Assembly: GCA_964511375.1 (NCBI GenBank)
Contig: CAZEEW010000001.1
Span: 70,512-134,511 of the forward strand
Direction: 5' to 3'
DNA: 64,000 nt
DNA from: an uncultured Gammaproteobacteria bacterium
GTDB lineage: Bacteria; Patescibacteriota; Patescibacteriia; Magasanikbacterales; GWA2-37-8
Shown here: positions 7,296 through 56,056 of the stretch, piece by piece
Layout of the letters: every line of letters begins with the position of its first letter
Numbering within the stretch: position 1 is the first letter of the stretch
The notes under the pieces: model-generated
What the model was told of the DNA's origin: nothing
Databases searched by the model: none
What the model saw: only the letters and a program-made list of their open reading frames with translations
Program-made: the position numbers and the translations under genes

Positions 7296-7324
7296 ACTAT
7301 ACCACAAATATACGGTTTTGTCAA
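7296..7324 (-). promoter_or_regulatory. Sigma70-like promoter for the secreted repeat-protein gene.
   Basis: On the minus strand the elements are TTGACA, a 17-nt spacer and TATAGT, with an extended TGTGGTATAGT. Confidence 0.45.
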
Positions 7325-29138: not shown

Positions 29139-30860
29139 CTATTCTTTAGTTACACGTAGTATTTCACTAATTGTGGTAATGCCAATTTTGGCTTTAATCA
29201 AGCCATCTTCTAACATTGTCAACATGCCGTGTTCGCGGGCATAATTTTTAATTTCCTCAGCGGTGCCACGATTGTTAATGATTTGGGTTAGTTTATCGTC
29301 GATTTCCAAAACTTCGTAAATACCTTGTCGTCCCTTATACCCAGTGTCGCCGCATCTTCGGCAGCCCGTGCCTTGGTAAAAAATCATACTGGCCAGGTTT
29401 TTTTCTTTTATCTTAATATCTCCGTATTTTGTAAATAGTTCTCCCATCTTTTTAACATCGAATATCTTCAAGAGGTCAGCAATCGCGGCTTTATCTAACT
29501 TGTATTCTTTTTTACAGTGTGGACAGATTTTTCTGACTAAACGTTGAGCAATAATAATGTTAGCGGTAAAGGCGACCAAGAAAGGCGGAACACCCATGTC
29601 TGTTAGGCGAGGTAGGGCGGTCGGTGCGTCATTTGTATGCAGTGTCGACAATACCAAGTGTCCAGTCATGGCCGAATGAATAGCGATCTCAGCAGTTTCT
29701 TCATCGCGGATTTCTCCGACCATGATAACATTCGGGTCCTGACGTAATAAGGAGCGCAAGCCTGAAGCAAAGGTAAATCCTACTTTGGGATTAATTTGGC
29801 TTTGGTTTACCCCAGCAACGCGGTACTCGATCGGGTCTTCGATGGTTGAAATGTTTACACCCGGTTGGTTTAAAATACCAAGAACAGAATACAAGGTTGT
29901 GGTTTTACCAGAACCAGTCGGACCGGTAACCAAGATCATGCCGTGCGGTTTCTTAATAGCGGATTCAACAATTTCTTTAATTTTTGGTAAAAACCCAAGC
30001 TGATCCAAAGTTAATGGTTTTGTTCCTTCATGTAGCAGGCGCATAACAATCTTTTCACCATCATATACTGGTAGAATAGACACACGAAAAGCCAACTTCT
30101 CATCCTGCACTTGTATTTTAAAGCGCCCGTCCTGTGGCACCATGTGCTCATCTAGCTTTAGATTAGCCAAAATCTTGATTCTTGCAATAATACCATTTTG
30201 AATCGCTTTTGGTAGGGTCATGACAGGTTTTAAGACGCCATCAATGCGGTAACGAATAGTCACCTCTTTTTCGCCAGGCTCCATGTGAATATCTGAAGCA
30301 TTTTCGTAAACTGCGTGCTCTAAAATACTATTCACGATATTTACTACTGGCAATTCTTCCGCTGCCTTTTTTAGGTCCTTGGCGTTTATCGTCCCAGTTG
30401 GGTCAGTAACAATTTTCAAATCATCTTCCAGCTCCGCATGATAACGGCGTAGAGCATCTTTGAGATCAGACGGTGTGGTAATAAACACGTTCGGTTCTAA
30501 TCCAGTTTTACGACGCAGGAATTCGATTGTTTGAATATCGGTCGGATCAGTCATGGCCAGTTTTAGTTCAGTCGCGTCTTTGTCAAAAGCAACAACCTGG
30601 TGAGTGCCAGCCAGAGGACCAGGAATAAGATTCAAAATTTCTTTTTTAATTTCTTTTCCTTTTAAACCAATAAATGGGAAATCCAAATACTTTCCAGCCT
30701 TTTCATAAAGCTCTTCTTCAGAAATTTCTCCTTCTGCAACCAGGGCGTCTTCCAACTCCTTATTTTGTTTTTCAGCTTTAGTAGATACCGAGCGTAAAGC
30801 CGAAGTAGAAATAAGTTTATACTTTTTAATAACTTCTTTTAGTGTGTCTGTAGGTAACAT
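29139..30860 (-). CDS. pilB: Type IV pilus assembly ATPase PilB (GspE family).
   Basis: It has Walker A (GPTGSGKTTT), the Asp/His boxes and a tetracysteine motif (CPHC...CRRC). Confidence 0.9.
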   Translation of the reverse strand: MLPTDTLKEVIKKYKLISTSALRSVSTKAEKQNKELEDALVAEGEISEEELYEKAGKYLDFPFIGLKGKEIKKEILNLIPGPLAGTHQVVAFDKDATELKLAMTDPTDIQTIEFLRRKTGLEPNVFITTPSDLKDALRRYHAELEDDLKIVTDPTGTINAKDLKKAAEELPVVNIVNSILEHAVYENASDIHMEPGEKEVTIRYRIDGVLKPVMTLPKAIQNGIIARIKILANLKLDEHMVPQDGRFKIQVQDEKLAFRVSILPVYDGEKIVMRLLHEGTKPLTLDQLGFLPKIKEIVESAIKKPHGMILVTGPTGSGKTTTLYSVLGILNQPGVNISTIEDPIEYRVAGVNQSQINPKVGFTFASGLRSLLRQDPNVIMVGEIRDEETAEIAIHSAMTGHLVLSTLHTNDAPTALPRLTDMGVPPFLVAFTANIIIAQRLVRKICPHCKKEYKLDKAAIADLLKIFDVKKMGELFTKYGDIKIKEKNLASMIFYQGTGCRRCGDTGYKGRQGIYEVLEIDDKLTQIINNRGTAEEIKNYAREHGMLTMLEDGLIKAKIGITTISEILRVTKE

Positions 30861-30930
30861 AAAAATCGCAAAATTTTTGCAATTTAATTATATCACATTA
30901 TAGAGTTATGATGAAGTAAGAAAAATATAT

Positions 30931-30942
30931 TTGTGGTATACT
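30931..30942 (+). promoter_or_regulatory. Extended -10 promoter element (TGTGGTATACT) upstream of GC-rich island A.
   Basis: It is nearly identical to the extended -10 element at 7296 (TGTGGTATAGT). It sits about 10 nt before the GC-rich segment. Confidence 0.4.
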
Positions 30943-30977
30943 CTAAGTGAGATGCTGGCTCGGAGAGGAGGTGAGCG

Positions 30978-31208
30978 ATGAGCCAGTTCAAGCGAGGTCT
31001 ACCACCCGACCTCAAAGCAATGGGTGGCCAGGTTTTCTGCCGGGAGCGGTTTGGTACAATCGTCGGTTACTCAACCGACGCCGCTCGAGGCAGACGGACT
31101 CTTCTTGTTCTCCAGGTCGTTCCTGGGTTCGGGGCGCAGGTGCTCCGGATTTCGGAGAATGACCACGATCTCTCGCGTGTGAGACTGGCGACGGCTTCGC
31201 CATGCTAG
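30978..31208 (+). CDS. GC-rich small hypothetical protein of 76 aa (island A).
   Basis: A strong SD (GGAGAGGAGG) lies 6 nt before the ATG. Third-position GC is elevated. It is preceded by a nine-codon upstream ORF (MLARRGGER) whose stop overlaps the start as ATGA. It could alternatively be a structured RNA. Confidence 0.35.
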   Translation: MSQFKRGLPPDLKAMGGQVFCRERFGTIVGYSTDAARGRRTLLVLQVVPGFGAQVLRISENDHDLSRVRLATASPC

Positions 31209-31313
31209 CCCCACGCGATAAGAAGGAGGCCTCGTGGCCTGCCTGATTCTCTTTGGCGCCGTTAAACACCTCGCGGCGCCCCTTCATTAAAAAAAATAAT
31301 TAGCCGCCCTGAT

Positions 31314-31736
31314 TTAAGAGCGGCTATTGTTAAATATTTGTTCAATCAGAACGGGTAAATTGTCTGGCGTGGCGTAAGTGAAAATCTCTACTTCCGTATT
31401 GCCCTTAATCATAGCGGATAATTTGTAGGTGTCCTTGCCTTGGTAAAGACAGACAACTCGTTTTTTTTCGTTCAAAGCCTGAGCTATTTCATATCCTACA
31501 CCCAAGCTTGGTGTGGTTACTTCAGCAATTACAACATTACTATTTAAAATGTTTTTCATTTCTCTGTCATGAATTTCCTCTTTACTTAGGTCGGTTTCCC
31601 CGTATACAGTAATATTTTCGTCAGCGACCTGAGCAGATAAAACTCGGCCGTATTTTTGTAGTTCCCCAACTATTGTTGCATATATTGGCAACATGGCCCG
31701 TCCGCCCCGTATCGAACCAGTAAAGAAGATGTTCAT
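31314..31736 (-). CDS. Nucleoside 2-deoxyribosyltransferase-like (PF05014/Rcl-like) protein.
   Basis: It is 140 aa with the N-terminus MNIFFTGSIRGG, which is typical of the NDT/DNPH1 fold. A putative terminator hairpin (TAGCCGC...GCGGCTA) overlaps the stop codon. Confidence 0.45.
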   Translation of the reverse strand: MNIFFTGSIRGGRAMLPIYATIVGELQKYGRVLSAQVADENITVYGETDLSKEEIHDREMKNILNSNVVIAEVTTPSLGVGYEIAQALNEKKRVVCLYQGKDTYKLSAMIKGNTEVEIFTYATPDNLPVLIEQIFNNSRS

Positions 31737-31747
31737 AAAACTTAATG

Positions 31748-32539
31748 TTAATATCTTGGCGTATTGCTTAATTCCCAGATAAATTGAAATAAATTAGATT
31801 GCATTGTAATCAGGTTTTGATCTTCCAGTAAGAGTATGATGGGTTCGCGTCCATCGTGAGTAACGTAAAGCATTTTGGAATTATAAAGGTAAATGTCTTG
31901 GGTGGCAATCTTAAGGTTGTTTGGCCCGAGACGATGCCAAGTATAGTCATTAAGCGGTTGCTTTCTTATCCATTCCAAACTAGCAGTGCTATTTTCCACT
32001 AAAATATTGAGCGGCAGACGCTTATTAAGCCTTCTGACTTCAAAATCTTCTTGCACTTCTAAGCCGGGAATTTTTGGCGTACCAATATGTTTGTAATAAT
32101 AAATTATCTTAGGGTTAGAGCGCAAGATGTCTTCTAAGGCTGATTGGTAACCATGAATACCTTGAAAGATCGATGTGTCCGGTCGTTTAGACGAAAGACG
32201 GTAAGCAGCTTTTAGTTCAGGAATAATCTCCTGGATAGTTAGAGTGGTGTTTTTGAATTCCTGCCCGCGTTTGTCTAGCAATTCATATAACCGGTCGGGG
32301 TTTTCCACAATATATTCTGTTCGCCAACCCGCCTTTTCTCGTGTAACAAGGCCGGCTTCTTGTAAATTGTTTAGAACATAATACAATATGGTACGCGGGA
32401 AAGGTGTGCGTACTTGTAGTTCTTGTACTGTGCTTTTGGGATGCGTCAATAATAAAGAGTAAAGCAGGGACTCATTCTCCCCCAGCCCTAAATTCCGCAG
32501 GGCCTCTACCACCCGACTTTTTGTTTGTTTTTTAGCCAT
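31748..32539 (-). CDS. TrmB-family transcriptional regulator, a paralog of the gene at 10939-11676.
   Basis: It has an N-terminal wHTH (ESLLYSLLLTHPKSTVQELQVRTPFPRTILYYVLNNLQEAGLV) and a TrmB-like C-terminus. Confidence 0.55.
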   Translation of the reverse strand: MAKKQTKSRVVEALRNLGLGENESLLYSLLLTHPKSTVQELQVRTPFPRTILYYVLNNLQEAGLVTREKAGWRTEYIVENPDRLYELLDKRGQEFKNTTLTIQEIIPELKAAYRLSSKRPDTSIFQGIHGYQSALEDILRSNPKIIYYYKHIGTPKIPGLEVQEDFEVRRLNKRLPLNILVENSTASLEWIRKQPLNDYTWHRLGPNNLKIATQDIYLYNSKMLYVTHDGREPIILLLEDQNLITMQSNLFQFIWELSNTPRY

Positions 32540-32822
32540 ATGCGCTAGAATAACAGCTTTTTAATTATTTGTCAAATACATATTTACAATCTCATGCCTG
32601 GACTATTGCTAGGTATCCAAAAGTCTGCTATTATAAACGATCATCTTCAAAAAAAGAAGATGTTCAAATAATATTTACAAGCTCCTTAAAATTCGCAAAA
32701 AAGGCAAATTCAATCTGGCGAACCAACATTTTCTTTTAATTTTAGAAAAAAATGCTGGCTCGCCAGAAGGTCGTTCCTCACGGTGGGGGATGACTGGAAG
32801 GTAAGTTGGAAAGGAAAAAGAG

Positions 32823-33986
32823 ATGGAGTCGGTCCGTCTCTTGTCCTGGAGCTTCGTTCACGTGCTCCAGATGATTCTCAACCTCGCCCGGCGCGGCGGG
32901 GTCGACTTCTCCAACCCCGGTCTCCTCCGTGAGGCCCTGAACATCCGGGCCTGGGAGGCCCTCGACGAGTTGGGGCGCGACCCCAAACACTTGTGGCGGC
33001 TTACGCCGCCCCTGCACCAGGTTTACTCTCGGGCCCTGGCTTACGGAGCTGGGGACAGGTGTAGCCATAATCAGGTCTACATGGCAGCCGAACAAGCCAC
33101 CAGTCTCGCCGAGGTAGCACTCGGTGAGGTGGGGTACAGTTGGCTGTCGCGGCGTCAGGTTGCTGCTCAGCTGATCTACGCACTGGCGAATGAGATCCAG
33201 GGCGATCCGCACGCCCTGGACGCAGCCGAGCGTCAGTCCCGCTCCGAGGCCTTCCTCCGGGAGTTCTACGGGTGCGGGTGGGACGACCCCGACCCCGAGC
33301 TCCAGAAGGAAGTTGAGTACTACGAGCGCCAGCTCGGGGTGCTCTACTGCCTCAGGGCGATCGCGGTGCTCACCGAGCATCCCGAGCTCGACCTCGTCGA
33401 GCTGACCCGCCAGGGCCTCATGAAGTACGGGGTCGTGGACACCCGGGGCCGCCGGGTGTGCTACTGGTGCTCCGGTGCCCCCTGCGTCTGCGGTGGGCGG
33501 AAGGGCGGGATGAAGGCCCGCCGGCCGGAGATCACCTCCGACCTCGTCTGGGCCCGGGGACTGCCGGAGATGGACCAGCACATGGTCGTCTACGGCGTGT
33601 CTCGGAACTCGGCCATCAACGCCCTCGCGGGTGTGGTTCGCTCCCTGTCGGAGGACGGTGGGGAGTACGGATGGATCAACCTCATGTCCCGCTGTGGCGG
33701 GACGAACCGGGGAATCCAAGAGAGGCTCGGCTGCCTCTACCTCGGCAGCAGCCGGCACCCCCGCATGGCGGCCAAGAAGTTCGACGCCGAGGGCGTGCCT
33801 CTCATCGAGGGGCTCTACTCGGAGGCGGCGGACGCCGTCGTCTCCTGGCCCTGCCTCGTGACACAGGCCTTCGGTCTGCAGTTCACAAGGTCGGTCTTAC
33901 TCGGTCTCCAGCACATGGCCGATGGCGCCGGGGTCACGCTCGAGACCCCAGACGATCTGACCCGGACCATCCCGGTCCGCGAGTAG
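32823..33986 (+). CDS. GC-rich hypothetical protein of 387 aa (island B, gene 1).
   Basis: It has a strong GC3 codon bias in this frame. The SD-like AGGAAAAAGAG precedes the ATG. It has a Cys cluster (CYWCSGAPCVCGG). I recognised no domain. The overlapping antisense ORFs are composition artifacts. Confidence 0.55.
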   Translation: MESVRLLSWSFVHVLQMILNLARRGGVDFSNPGLLREALNIRAWEALDELGRDPKHLWRLTPPLHQVYSRALAYGAGDRCSHNQVYMAAEQATSLAEVALGEVGYSWLSRRQVAAQLIYALANEIQGDPHALDAAERQSRSEAFLREFYGCGWDDPDPELQKEVEYYERQLGVLYCLRAIAVLTEHPELDLVELTRQGLMKYGVVDTRGRRVCYWCSGAPCVCGGRKGGMKARRPEITSDLVWARGLPEMDQHMVVYGVSRNSAINALAGVVRSLSEDGGEYGWINLMSRCGGTNRGIQERLGCLYLGSSRHPRMAAKKFDAEGVPLIEGLYSEAADAVVSWPCLVTQAFGLQFTRSVLLGLQHMADGAGVTLETPDDLTRTIPVRE

Positions 33987-34187
33987 TCGCCTCGCCGGCT
34001 GTCCTTCGGGGCGGTCGGTGGGCATGGTTTAGAGGTGGGGCGTTTCTCTTAGGGGAGACGCTTGCGCCTCCCCTATCCCAGTATTTCTTAATTCAAGGAA
34101 TGTTGAGATAGGAGGCTCGTAGACCGACGTGTTTTCGTTGGGCGCTCGGTTGAGCGCACGGCGAAACACCAAACAGAGGGAGGACAA

Positions 34188-34547
34188 ATGGTCCACAAGG
34201 ATCTCAGAATCGAGCTGGTGCTCGGCGGCGTCACTTTTATCATCGTTGGCTTCCTCGAGGCAGGCGAGGAAGTGATCACCGGTGATGAAATGAAGCGTCG
34301 GCTGGCGGCCCGCTCCTTGCGGCTCATCCACGGGGCGGATTTCGAGCACTTCTCTCGCTACCGCGAGGATTTGCCGAAAGAACTCCGACCTCACCTACTG
34401 GCCACAGACCAGTGTGCTCCAGAGTGCCAGAAAGAGACGACCGTCTTCGAGTTCTTCGAAGATGTGGAAGTGTGGCACTCGTTCTGGCACAACCTTTGCG
34501 GCCCGACATGGGGCCACAACGTCTTGGCGGTGTGCTGTTGTGTGTAG
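34188..34547 (+). CDS. GC-rich hypothetical protein of 119 aa (island B, gene 2).
   Basis: The SD is GAGGGAGG, 5 nt before the ATG. It has GC3 bias. It is followed by a 14-bp GC hairpin. Confidence 0.45.
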   Translation: MVHKDLRIELVLGGVTFIIVGFLEAGEEVITGDEMKRRLAARSLRLIHGADFEHFSRYREDLPKELRPHLLATDQCAPECQKETTVFEFFEDVEVWHSFWHNLCGPTWGHNVLAVCCCV

Positions 34548-34555
34548 GAGGGAGC

Positions 34556-34600
34556 GGTGCCGGCGGGGGACCCCCCGCCGGCACCCGTAGTCCCTTTTAA
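34556..34600 (+). terminator. Strong GC hairpin terminator closing island B.
   Basis: The stem is GGTGCCGGCGGGGG-a-CCCCCGCCGGCACC (14 bp), followed by a T-rich tract. Confidence 0.6.
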
Positions 34601-34691
34601 TTTAAATCACTAGCGTTGTTTTATTATAACTTACCTCTTGATGTACTAAATAATTATTTGTGATATACTTCATTTATTCTAATTCTTAATT

Positions 34692-36650: not shown

Positions 36651-37739
36651 CTATTCTTCAGGAGGTAAGGGTACTTCTTCGTCGGTTGGTTCACCTGGGT
36701 TTCCTTCCTCTTCCTCTGGCGCCTCACCTCGTTCAACCACTTCCCATACCTTATCTCTGATTTCGTTTAATAGTTTTGGGTTATCCTTTAAATATTTTTT
36801 AGCAGTCTCGCGGCCAACACCTAATTTTTCTTCGCGGTAGTTATATGAATTTCCTTTTTTGTCTATTACTTTGTAAGTAACAGCGGTGTCTAATAAATCG
36901 CCCGACAATGAAATACCTTCATTGTACATGATATCAAATTCTGTTGTGCGGAATGGGGGCGCTACTTTGTTCTTTACTACTTTAATTTTTACGCGATTAC
37001 CAATTACTTTGTCACCCTGTTTAATCTGAGCAGCCCGGCGGATTTCAATGCGGATAGACGAATAGAATTTTAAAGCTACACCACCAGTTGTAGTTTCTGG
37101 GTTGCCAAAATATACGCCGATCTTCATACGAGTCTGGTTAATGAAGATCAAGACGGTTTTGGACTTACTAATAATCGCAGTCAGTTTACGGAGAGCCTGA
37201 CTCATGAGGCGAGCCTGTAAACCCATCTGCGCCTCGCCCATTTCTCCTTCAATTTCCGCCTTTGGCACCAGGGCCGCAACGGAGTCCACAACTACAACGT
37301 CAACAGCATTAGAGCGCACCAAAGTTTCTACGATTTCTAATGCCTGTTCACCGGTATCTGGCTGAGAAATTAAAAGTTCGTCAACCTTAATACCAATTTT
37401 ACGTGCATAATCTGGGTCAAAAGCGTGTTCGGCATCGACAAAAGCCGCAATGCCACCACGTTTTTGCACTTCCGCTACAACGTGCTGTGCTAAAGTTGTT
37501 TTACCACTAGCTTCTGGTCCATACACTTCAATAATACGACCACGTGGTACGCCTTTAACGCCAAGTGCTATGTCCAGGGACATGCAGCCAGTAGGTATTG
37601 ATTCTACCTGCATTGAAGCCTTGGCTTCGCCAAAAGTCATAATTGCCCCATCACCAAAGCGGCTCTTGATCTGCTCGATCGCGCTTTCGGCTGCTTTCAG
37701 CTTGTTCTTTACCTCCTCGTTAACTGATCCTTTAGCCAT
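36651..37739 (-). CDS. recA: Recombinase RecA.
   Basis: It has Walker A ([10 protein letters not shown]) and the RecA L1/L2 regions. Confidence 0.95.
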
Positions 37740-51632: not shown

Positions 51633-51815
51633 GGCTAAAATTTGAGATAGAATAACAATATAAAACAAAAATCCTACACTTTAAAGTATAGGATCTTATG
51701 TATTCCATTTAGCTTCTCTGTAGTCTTTAGCTAACAAGTGTTTGCTAGTTAAGGGCCGGGACAGAGAAGCTGTCCGCGGGTTAAAGAGTATGGGAACAGC
51801 TAGGTGGTTCGTCGA

Positions 51816-52037
51816 TCACCGCCTTCGCTGTAGAACAGCGAGGGTAGCGATTGAGAAGAACACACCTCCCACAACCGTCACGCGCTTAGGTTCGCGCGCA
51901 AGATCGTGGAACAAGCCGTCCCCGGTAAGGTCACCGCTCGCGCAGGCCAGGAGTCCGCAGATGATGCTTGCGAACACGGCTCCAGCCACGAGAGCGAGGA
52001 CTAGCCGAACGATCGCTTGATCACACTGCTGGGTCAT
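51816..52037 (-). CDS. GC-rich small membrane protein of 73 aa (island C).
   Basis: The SD is GGAGGGG, 6 nt before the ATG on the minus strand. It has one or two transmembrane helices (VRLVLALVAGAVFASIICGLLACA). The longer ORF to 52091 starts in the AT-rich flank without an SD. Confidence 0.4.
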   Translation of the reverse strand: MTQQCDQAIVRLVLALVAGAVFASIICGLLACASGDLTGDGLFHDLAREPKRVTVVGGVFFSIATLAVLQRRR

Positions 52038-52120
52038 TTGACCCCTCCATGCCCCCGCAGGGGCAAGTTGGAATAGACAAGATTTAATCACGAAAATGAG
52101 TTATAGTCAATCACATTTTT

Positions 52121-55291: not shown

Positions 55292-55398
55292 CACATTCAT
55301 ACATTGGACGTGATTTGTTTTTTAATAGCGAAAATTGCTGTTAAAAAACATGTCTCGTCCAGGGCGGACGGGAGTAAACCCGCAACGGGAGAGTTCAG

Positions 55399-55932
55399 AT
55401 GAAGAGCCTGGTGTCGTGTTTCGTGCTGGTCGCCCTGTTCCTCAACCTGTTCGGCTGCATCGAAGCGGCCGAGTTCAACCACTCCGACGCGACGACCGTG
55501 TCGGAGGACGTGGCTAGCGTCCAAGACGTCTCCTTGCCAGAGGAGAACGACATCGCCATCAAGATTCCCCGGGCGGAGTGCCCGGAGGCAACAGCCGGAC
55601 CATACACGGTCCGAGTTGTGATCGACGCCACGACCTGGGTCAGGATCTCGTCCGAGGTAGAGCGTGTCTTCCTCAGCCGGGAGCTCGATGCAGATCGGAT
55701 GGACACGGCCGAAATTCGCGTCGAGTCCGCCGGGTGCGATTTCCAGTTCGCCATCAGCAACAACTCCACGGAGGTCGCGCACGTCTCTGTGGAAGCCCCG
55801 ACAGGGGTTTCCATCACCATCCGGTACGCCCGTGGCGGATCCGAGACCGTTCCCGCGAACGGTTTCAAGCAGGCGATCGTCTACACGGTCGGTAATGTGA
55901 AGTACTACTTCCATTACCAGCCGCCGGGCTGA
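55399..55932 (+). CDS. GC-rich putative lipoprotein of 177 aa (island D).
   Basis: The SD is GGGAGAG, 6 nt before the ATG. It has a signal peptide with a lipobox (LFGC). It has GC3 bias. The antisense ORFs are composition artifacts. Confidence 0.55.
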   Translation: MKSLVSCFVLVALFLNLFGCIEAAEFNHSDATTVSEDVASVQDVSLPEENDIAIKIPRAECPEATAGPYTVRVVIDATTWVRISSEVERVFLSRELDADRMDTAEIRVESAGCDFQFAISNNSTEVAHVSVEAPTGVSITIRYARGGSETVPANGFKQAIVYTVGNVKYYFHYQPPG

Positions 55933-56056
55933 GCACCAAGGGCGGCAAGTCGCCGCCCGCGAGGCTGCCGCATCGTACTGGCCCTCGTATTCATTATTAA
56001 TCCTTTGGGGTTGGTAATGAGTACTTACTTCCAGTACGCTTGCGAATAAAAATAAA

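Follow-up and report, generated by a model that had tools for sequence, protein, structure and literature searches.

A shared 11-mer at the borders of two GC-rich islands in a Patescibacteria genome as the possible opening of translationally coupled leader cistrons

The closest described counterparts of the arrangement reported here are leaders in which a short first cistron is translated ahead of a second one. In the leaderless bicistronic design (BCD) of Corynebacterium glutamicum, a translated fore-cistron and a Shine-Dalgarno (SD) motif are both needed (PMC10367133). Among natural systems, the commonest coupling junction is NTGA, and in one study cited by a review the coupling efficiency was unaffected over spacings from -4 to +25 nt (PMC12548453). 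Some lineages of the candidate phyla radiation (CPR) lack the anti-SD sequence (PMC9297842). The present work concerns a 64-kb stretch of a Patescibacteria (CPR) genome with ~42% GC that is probably close to Saccharibacteria, a stretch here called the window, in which two of four GC-rich islands, A and B, begin with the same 11-mer, ATGCTGGCTCG. In both islands the 11-mer opens a short upstream open reading frame (ORF) that closes on ATGA, an overlap of its stop codon with a new start codon. We tentatively favour, short of calling it probable, the interpretation that the 11-mer is the opening of two related, translationally coupled short leader cistrons.

The window carries the core genes polA, ftsK, rpoB/C, recA and ruvC and a type IV pilus cluster, and each of the four discrete islands (57-67% GC versus 42% overall) occupies an intergenic gap between core genes. 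Their edges are sharp to within a few nucleotides according to a change-point fit, and their ORFs have no or almost no database relatives. For islands A and B, the two-segment maximum-likelihood change points from AT-rich to GC-rich DNA fall at 30947 (range 30933-30954) and 32754 (range 32753-32757), so that the 11-mer lies within 5 nt of the change point in A and within 2 nt in B. A first inspection of the DNA, the sequence-only reading, had described a shared 11-mer at both composition boundaries, and the exact-match search together with the change-point fit confirmed it. Of the two coordinates that it gave, 30952 was right and 32751 was one base low (Table 1). Its description of island A, in which the 11-mer opens the ORF MLARRGGER and the TGA of this ORF overlaps the ATG of a 76-residue ORF (A76), stands as made. 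In island B, the short ORF, its ATGA and a four-codon mini-ORF ahead of a 387-residue gene (B387) were all recovered, with the ATGA located at 32790-32793 instead of 32789-32792. The expectation that further islands would open with the 11-mer did not hold: islands C and D do not, and in its general form the hypothesis thereby fails by its own test. Nor did the proposed search for additional copies return a third ATGCTGGCTCG in 79 kb of the genome (the window and a further 15 kb, the latter also without a strong island).

How far such a coincidence of sequence and position might be expected by chance is the first matter to be weighed. The 11-mer occurs twice in 64 kb, compared with 0.04 occurrences expected from dinucleotide shuffles. 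It is nevertheless possible to regard the shared 11-mer and both ATGA closures as accidents without function or common origin, and much in the data is favourable to this view. Seven exact 11-mers and one 12-mer are common to the four islands in 5.6 million position pairs, which gives an empirical sharing rate of 1.25e-6 per pair, about threefold the naive base-composition rate. Islands A and B have a second 11-mer in common, which is non-collinear with the first, and the best local alignment of the whole of A with the whole of B is the 11-mer itself, a score equalled or exceeded in 136 of 200 shuffles. When what follows the 11-mer in the upstream ORFs is aligned with a single in-frame gap of 12 nt (four codons), the result is better than 99.3% of shuffles; most of this signal comes from the shared GATGA, without which the similarity is not significant (P = 0.19). 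Moreover, the feature was singled out after 64 kb had been read, it is not conserved in orthologues, and it is missing from islands C and D and from the rest of the 79 kb. The raw 11-mer match is thus not special; only its boundary position and the double ATGA are unusual.

These two properties are harder to attribute to chance. At the empirical rate, the probability that two 50-nt boundary windows share an 11-mer is ~2e-3, or ~1e-2 for any of the six island pairs, which is weaker than the figure of below about 1e-3 proposed initially. A frame of 5-20 codons running from the 11-mer arises in 30% of island-like sequence and closes on ATGA in 2.4%; given an ORF of 5-20 codons, the ATGA ending has a probability of 0.079, and of ~0.006 for both ORFs, and all of these probabilities are post hoc, which tells against the coupled-leader interpretation. 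The ATGA closures are evidence independent of the position, and both properties together are nonetheless hard to obtain by chance, even with a generous look-elsewhere factor; the resulting layout corresponds to a known functional design. We therefore consider pure coincidence unlikely, and the shared architecture is probably not a product of chance.

What speaks for a role in translation is the contrast between native and island start sites. An SD-like 4-mer (GGAG, GAGG, AGGA or AAGG at -20 to -4) precedes just 2 of 51 native gene starts, the native upstream regions are AT-rich, and the native genes of the relatives L004-L008 show the same lack of SD motifs. (The related loci that were compared come from one Saccharibacteria metagenome-assembled genome (MAG) and one 'Patescibacteria group' MAG.) All five island ORFs, on the other hand, have an SD motif at normal spacing (GGAGG, AAAGGA, GGGAGG, GGGAG and GGAGGGG). 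Because native genes are SD-free with AT-rich upstream regions and the island genes are SD-led, the ATG at the boundary is the only native-looking start in each leader.

Island A also has what appears to be a native promoter at the appropriate place. The window has three copies of the motif TTTGTGnTATAnT, where 0.07 would be expected, every one of them 5' of a gene start, and in the copy at island A the -10 hexamer stops 9 nt short of the 11-mer's ATG. The comparable spacing for the native gene of a TrmB-family regulator, located between the two 11-mer copies, is 7 nt. Since the -10 hexamer ends 9 nt upstream, the island A transcript should begin 0-3 nt 5' of the ATG. As regards the promoter motif itself, TTTGTGnTATAnT resembles the house extended -10 promoter, and its third copy is found just past the 3' edge of island B. 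The TrmB gene is preceded by TTGACA-17-TATTCT (32539-32575, minus strand), ending 7 nt before the ATG, and is probably leaderless; a -10 box 6-9 nt before the start is also seen in several genes of the relatives (L005 2821, L008 1123 and L008 4318).

The coupled-leader interpretation can then be put as a sequence of steps. Each upstream ORF starts at the first ATG past an AT-rich, SD-free region, which would be the organism's own start context, and ribosomes would load at this boundary ATG by the native route, in island A probably on a leaderless or near-leaderless transcript. They would read through the GC-rich, folded leader, keeping its structures open, and would then restart at the overlapping ATG or leave the structure opened for the SD-led downstream gene. 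In island A, the leader would feed the 76-residue ORF directly. In island B, it would feed a four-codon relay ORF that stops 18 nt before B387, and this gap of +18 nt falls inside the range of -4 to +25 nt named above. Both upstream ORFs have the stop-start overlap (ATGA), and both leaders have a predicted hairpin with the 11-mer as its 5' arm. We infer the transcription starts, the translation of either upstream ORF, the coupling and the common ancestry of the two leaders from the sequence.

Several observations weigh against this interpretation. The leaders of B387 orthologues (L004, L005 and L006) have neither the 11-mer nor a coupled upstream ORF and cannot be aligned with the island B leader; islands C and D and the 119-residue ORF of island B are likewise without the device. 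In island A, the putative beneficiary is itself doubtful. A76 matched only itself among 5.8 billion proteins, and its GC content at codon positions 1, 2 and 3 (0.66, 0.49 and 0.62) has no third-position peak. Since A76 is an orphan without a third-position GC signal, it may not be a gene, and the island A device may serve nothing. The local hairpin of island A is no more stable than that of shuffled sequences (z = -0.3). In island B, the ATGA restarts merely the four codons of MTGR and not B387 itself; a G-run abuts the ATGA start without spacing, and the AAAGGA of B387 comes after the relay ORF. At the spacing seen in island A, island B offers only TAATTT (3/6). Its better matches to a promoter are found 60-120 nt upstream, so a leaderless upstream ORF B is improbable, and this ORF would be reached via a long AT-rich leader. 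ATGA junctions are known to evolve easily (PMC12548453). Finally, coupling leaves the identity of the eight bases after the ATG unexplained; it could be accounted for if the leaders had a common ancestor or if the stretch also served to bind a protein. A leader peptide of the regulatory kind is disfavoured separately, since there is no terminator-like site between either upstream ORF and its gene and the predicted hairpins are without a U-tract. Of the conserved leader-peptide and coupling device that had been suggested at first, the anatomy fits, especially in island A, whereas conservation in the orthologue leaders is lacking.

A protein-binding site could also be the whole of the matter. 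The 11-mer might be a transcription factor site, most simply for the TrmB-family regulator, that co-regulates both flanking GC-rich units. The regulator operon has an identical site on either side, the two being separated by exactly 1800 bp. Relative to the predicted promoter, the island A site would span approximately +3 to +13, where repressors classically bind, and exact identity over ~11 bp amid unrelated flanks is operator-like. An inverted partner is found near each copy: in island B the 9/11 copy ATGTTGGTTCG, 22 nt upstream, as well as CTGGC-TC-GCCAG, and in island A GAGCCAG, 19 nt downstream. Non-conservation of the site would also fit a regulator that is only 42-46% identical in the relatives. 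The partner half-sites of A, however, are placed and spaced otherwise than those of B and lie on the other side, and the 11-mer itself is not palindromic. With up to two mismatches allowed, the 11-mer occurs nine times in the window against 9.3 expected, so that the proximity of the inverted copy to copy B alone is notable. In island B the site is 60-120 nt from the best promoter matches and ~210 nt from the regulator's own start, no additional sites were found, and an operator would leave both the ATG and the ATGA, as well as the reading frames, without explanation. We consider an operator quite unlikely. The spacing of exactly 1800 bp between copies that bracket the operon of the regulator and a nucleoside 2-deoxyribosyltransferase-like (NDT) gene is probably a coincidence.

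The predicted pairing of the 11-mer in both leaders raises a further alternative. The 11-mer would contribute the 5' arm to a 5'-proximal stem-loop, and this RNA element would either stabilise the mRNA or conceal the downstream start region, with no need for translation of the upstream ORF. The 55-nt hairpin of island B is indeed unusually stable (z = -4.5, with 0 of 200 shuffles as stable), and island A taken as a whole RNA (30945-31300) folds with -152.7 kcal/mol (z = -4.3 compared with shuffles). Yet the pairing partners are unrelated between the two leaders, the local hairpin of island A does not stand out as noted above, there is no Rfam match, and there are no homologues in which covariation could be followed. 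An RNA element as the explanation of the shared 11-mer seems to us very doubtful. Island A itself may be a non-coding RNA or a decaying fragment and not a gene; the structural model of A76 made with AlphaFold2 (AF2) is uninformative (predicted local distance difference test, pLDDT, of 50). That the islands are known structured RNAs was rejected: Rfam gave three tRNAs in the window, the only matches to reach the gathering threshold, and for 30880-31340 no credible match at E <= 5.

The initial suggestions also included a terminal sequence common to mobile or delivered elements; on this reading, the 11-mer would be the conserved left end, or the core of an attachment site, of GC-rich DNA that had been inserted. 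In favour of this idea, the identity begins exactly at the composition boundary in both islands, the island genes look foreign, with SD motifs and a GC content at third codon positions (GC3) of 0.74-0.86 versus 0.38, and island A lies where the gene order differs from that of L006. The evidence from B387 is at odds with it. In four related Patescibacteria contigs, L005, L006 and L008 among them, the B387 orthologue stands between the same divergent TrmB-NDT pair and an HD-domain gene (HD). Amino-acid identity to the window is 61-69% for B387, 54-55% for NDT, 42-46% for TrmB and 53-59% for HD, with the same ranking of relatives. Because the synteny is kept and the identity of B387 is above that of the flanking genes and tracks their order, B387 is an old resident gene that was inherited in place and not inserted. 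A word search found five relatives of it, and among 1.84 billion proteins its family had 20 cluster representatives; the family is CPR-only as far as its members are named, and neither the phage, plasmid and viral collections nor a scan of the Joint Genome Institute (JGI) metagenomes yielded a relative. Furthermore, the islands share no right end, terminal inverted repeat or target-site duplication, C and D start otherwise, and only two copies of the 11-mer are present in 79 kb. No integrase, transposase or reverse transcriptase was among the 25 listed of 60 Pfam families (39 window ORFs matched). No empty site is available either: B387 is present at the orthologous site in the relatives, and the island A site is not comparable owing to the different gene order in L006.

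For island B, the mobile reading is thus largely refuted, and the initial suggestion to that effect finds no support; overall, we hold it to be highly improbable. Rather than marking where a mobile element ends, the 11-mers most likely belong to a small leader that couples translation, which would make them a new, unproven example of a known device. Other ways of accounting for the islands were examined and discarded. An assembly chimera is ruled out: SRR5011273 and SRR6488411, two other assemblies made independently, show the identical arrangement with 99.98-100% identity, and no strain polymorphism was seen at the islands across these assemblies. That A and B are diverged duplicates was rejected, as the whole-island alignment scored no better than shuffles and blastn and tblastx gave words at chance level only. 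A target-site duplication of the 11-mers, 1800 bp apart, was rejected since the intervening NDT-TrmB pair is ancestral and has the same orientation relative to B387 in the relatives. Island A is located at what reads as a rearrangement breakpoint, because the gene order at this junction differs from that of L006: there, a pilB-like gene (L006 2-91; 29139-30860 in the window) converges on the NDT gene, and this gene has the inverted orientation in the window.

The islands pose a greater puzzle than the motif that led to them, and simple horizontal transfer does not explain a GC-rich resident gene such as B387, given that it was inherited in place. The GC3 of B387 is 0.86 compared with 0.38 in its neighbours, and its third-position profile nearly equals that of the unrelated gene of island C. 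Among the orthologues, GC3 exceeds that of the surroundings in three cases (0.61 versus 0.46, 0.68 versus 0.52 and 0.66 versus 0.43), and only that of L004 is level with them at 0.50. The entire unit of island B is GC-rich, its non-coding spacer and its lineage-specific 119-residue ORF as well as B387. The picture suggests a persistent local force behind the GC3 of B387 rather than recent transfer. A recent transfer of island B from a high-GC host, e.g. an actinobacterium, was rejected on the grounds of the CPR family and of the synteny and identities that track the flanks.

A wider proposal may be derived from these data. The MLAR mini-cistron could be an adaptor that lets an SD-independent Patescibacterium, with ribosomes that begin on AT-rich or leaderless mRNAs, translate GC-rich, SD-bearing, strongly folded units, which would form a maintained expression class and not a set of recent imports. 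The units may be such a class, since one of them holds a vertically inherited CPR gene whose GC3 of 0.86 stands against 0.38 around it and which is GC3-elevated in three other lineages. As a whole, however attractive, this proposal is in our view distinctly unlikely. If the mini-cistron works as a coupled leader, it would show how a cell that does not rely on SD pairing expresses genes built on another plan, in the CPR/Patescibacteria, where translation initiation is almost unstudied. By itself, the finding of two 11-mer copies without conservation is modest and has small weight; the more valuable lead is the presence of discrete GC-rich, SD-bearing transcription units in an AT-rich, SD-free genome.

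Table 1. Positions of the 11-mer copies, leaders, islands and neighbouring features (window numbering unless a related locus is named)
Feature	Sequence or motif	Position	Strand	Remarks
11-mer copy A	ATGCTGGCTCG	30952-30962	+	exact-match search
11-mer copy B	ATGCTGGCTCG	32752-32762	+	exact-match search
Island A		30950-31285		76-aa ORF
Island B		32752-34595		387-aa and 119-aa ORFs
Island C		55350-55988		177-aa lipoprotein-like ORF
Island D		51753-52065		small membrane ORF, minus strand
Extended -10 promoter, native type	TTTGTGGTATACT	30930-30942	+	-10 hexamer TATACT at 30937-30942
Copies of the promoter motif	TTTGTGnTATAnT	7296-7308 (minus), 30930-30942, 34657-34669		
Upstream ORF A	ATG CTG GCT CGG AGA GGA GGT GAG CGA TGA	30952-30981	+	MLARRGGER + TGA
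SD motif of island A	GGAGG	30967-30971	+	inside upstream ORF A, 6 nt before the ATG of the 76-aa ORF
76-aa ORF (A76)		30978-31208	+	ATG overlaps the upstream stop as ATGA (30978-30981); orphan, coding status uncertain
Predicted 3' arm, island A	TGAGCCAGT	30979-30987	+	partner of 11-mer bases 30954-30962; by this pairing the A76 start codon would be masked
Imperfect inverted 11-mer copy	ATGTTGGTTCG	32719-32729	-	9/11; 22 nt upstream of copy B
Upstream ORF B	MLARQKVVPHGGG + TGA	32752-32793	+	thirteen codons; ATGA at 32790-32793
Predicted long leader hairpin, island B		32755-32809	+	CTGGCT of the 11-mer as 5' base; -36.5 kcal/mol
Mini-ORF	MTGR + TAA	32790-32804	+	started by ATGA, in frame with the 387-aa gene, stop 18 nt before its ATG
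SD-like motif of island B	AAAGGA	32810-32815	+	7 nt before the ATG of the 387-aa gene
387-aa gene (B387)		32823-33986	+	conserved CPR-specific family of unknown function; GC3 0.86
B387 orthologues		L005 1445-2698; L006 1448-2602; L008 1-432		
119-aa ORF		34188-34547	+	lineage-specific, in the GC-rich unit of island B
Island B, GC-rich 3'-end hairpin	GGTGCCGGCGGGG...CCCCGCCGGCACC	34556-34586	+	island end at 34595
TrmB-family regulator gene		31748-32539	-	between the 11-mer copies; Pfam PF01978, E = 2e-11
Native gene starts, examples		29139-30860 (minus), 34692, 36651-37739 (minus)		
Island ORF starts		30978, 32823, 34188, 55399, 52037 (minus)		

The other ORFs of the islands and the surroundings of B387 gave some additional observations. 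Searches of the island proteins against Pfam, PHROG, NCBIfam and PADLOC gave no matches of any weight, and the 177-residue ORF of island C had zero database matches. Invariant in the B387 family alignment (A1) are the motifs C-Y-x(3)-G-x(2)-C-x(2)-G-x-R, YG-x(2)-RNSA and SWPCLV-x-QA-x-G; the AF2 model of B387 is all-helical and has no match in the PDB. The genes next to B387 are nucleotide-related (nucleoside 2-deoxyribosyltransferase-like, HD 5'-nucleotidase-like and CYTH, and QueF in L004). The gap between B387 and the HD gene (33987-34691 in the window, L005 2699-3171, L006 2603-2700 and L008 433-1462) holds lineage-specific genes that differ in each genome, namely the GC-rich 119-residue ORF in the window, a 110-residue one in L005, nothing in L006, and 171- and 110-residue ones in L008, and it appears as a local hot spot of gene gain. 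The 119-residue orphan has a cysteine-rich C-terminus ending in CCCV, and no homologue of it was found at any searched relative's locus.

Short frames were also noticed elsewhere. In island A, the strong SD motif AAGGAGG precedes a GTG by 4 nt. The ORF that begins at this GTG, MACLILFGAVKHLAAPLH (window 31223-31290), is hydrophobic and 18 codons long, and its stop coincides with the 3' edge of the island. At the change point of island C there is an ATG, too (window 55350-55517), within ATGTCTCGTCCAG, which loosely resembles ATGCTGGCTCGCCAG; its frame of 55 codons overlaps the 177-residue ORF out of frame, with no stop-start overlap. Island D has a 9-codon upstream ORF, MEGSNDPAV (52021-52050, minus strand), with a 17-nt overlap with the start of the 73-residue membrane ORF and a sequence unrelated to the MLAR ORFs. 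Approximately 6 kb to the left of the window (L012 5087-6371), a second TrmB paralogue is divergent to a 100-residue unannotated ORF, which has a slightly raised GC content (~50%) and a G-rich stretch before its ATG and is without the 11-mer.

The two leaders share features with several known systems. Like miniature inverted-repeat transposable elements (MITEs), the ends of insertion sequences (IS) and integron cassette boundaries, they present an identical short sequence exactly at the edge of compositionally foreign DNA. Unlike these, the 11-mers amount to one end of 11 nt in two copies, without repeats, duplication or recombinase, and a vertically inherited gene makes up one of the two 'elements'. 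With attenuator leader peptides (trpL, ermCL and pyrL) they have in common a short ORF in a structured leader 5' of a gene that is, in the attenuators, regulated; here there are no regulatory codon runs, no pair of terminator and antiterminator with a U-tract, and no conservation in orthologues.

There is also a likeness to leaderless mRNAs and short 5'-terminal ORFs, as described in Mycobacterium (PMC4633059) and Deinococcus deserti (PMC4007540). In those bacteria very short ORFs occur at the 5' ends of transcripts, and here a -10 box is seen a few nucleotides before an SD-less ATG (9 nt in island A and 7 nt in the native TrmB gene). The start of transcription is predicted in our case, however, and canonical spacing would give a leader of 1-3 nt and not of 0, whereas island B has no convincing promoter at that distance. 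Natural NTGA coupling (-4 nt), e.g. of trpB-trpA and of genes VII-IX of phage f1 (PMC12548453), offers the same ATGA overlap, a predicted structure round the downstream start that an upstream ribosome could open, and reinitiation over short positive gaps. The known cases join two real protein genes; the upstream partners here are ORFs of 9-13 codons without evident function, and the downstream partner A76 may not be a real gene.

The leaderless BCD is a further close counterpart. It differs in being engineered, while the present leaders are natural and known from sequence alone, and in using a TAATG junction and ~20 codons instead of ATGA and 9-13 codons. Island B also departs from it in having a four-codon relay ORF and an 18-nt gap in place of a direct overlap, and the host of the islands seems not to use SD motifs for its own genes. 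The BCD makes downstream translation independent of a gene's own GC-rich or structured start region by means of a short first cistron at or next to the mRNA 5' end, an embedded SD motif and an overlapping stop-start, and in sequence island A has all three of these parts. If the reading favoured here is true, the leaders would be a natural counterpart of the bicistronic leaders by which engineers force the translation of badly behaved coding sequences.

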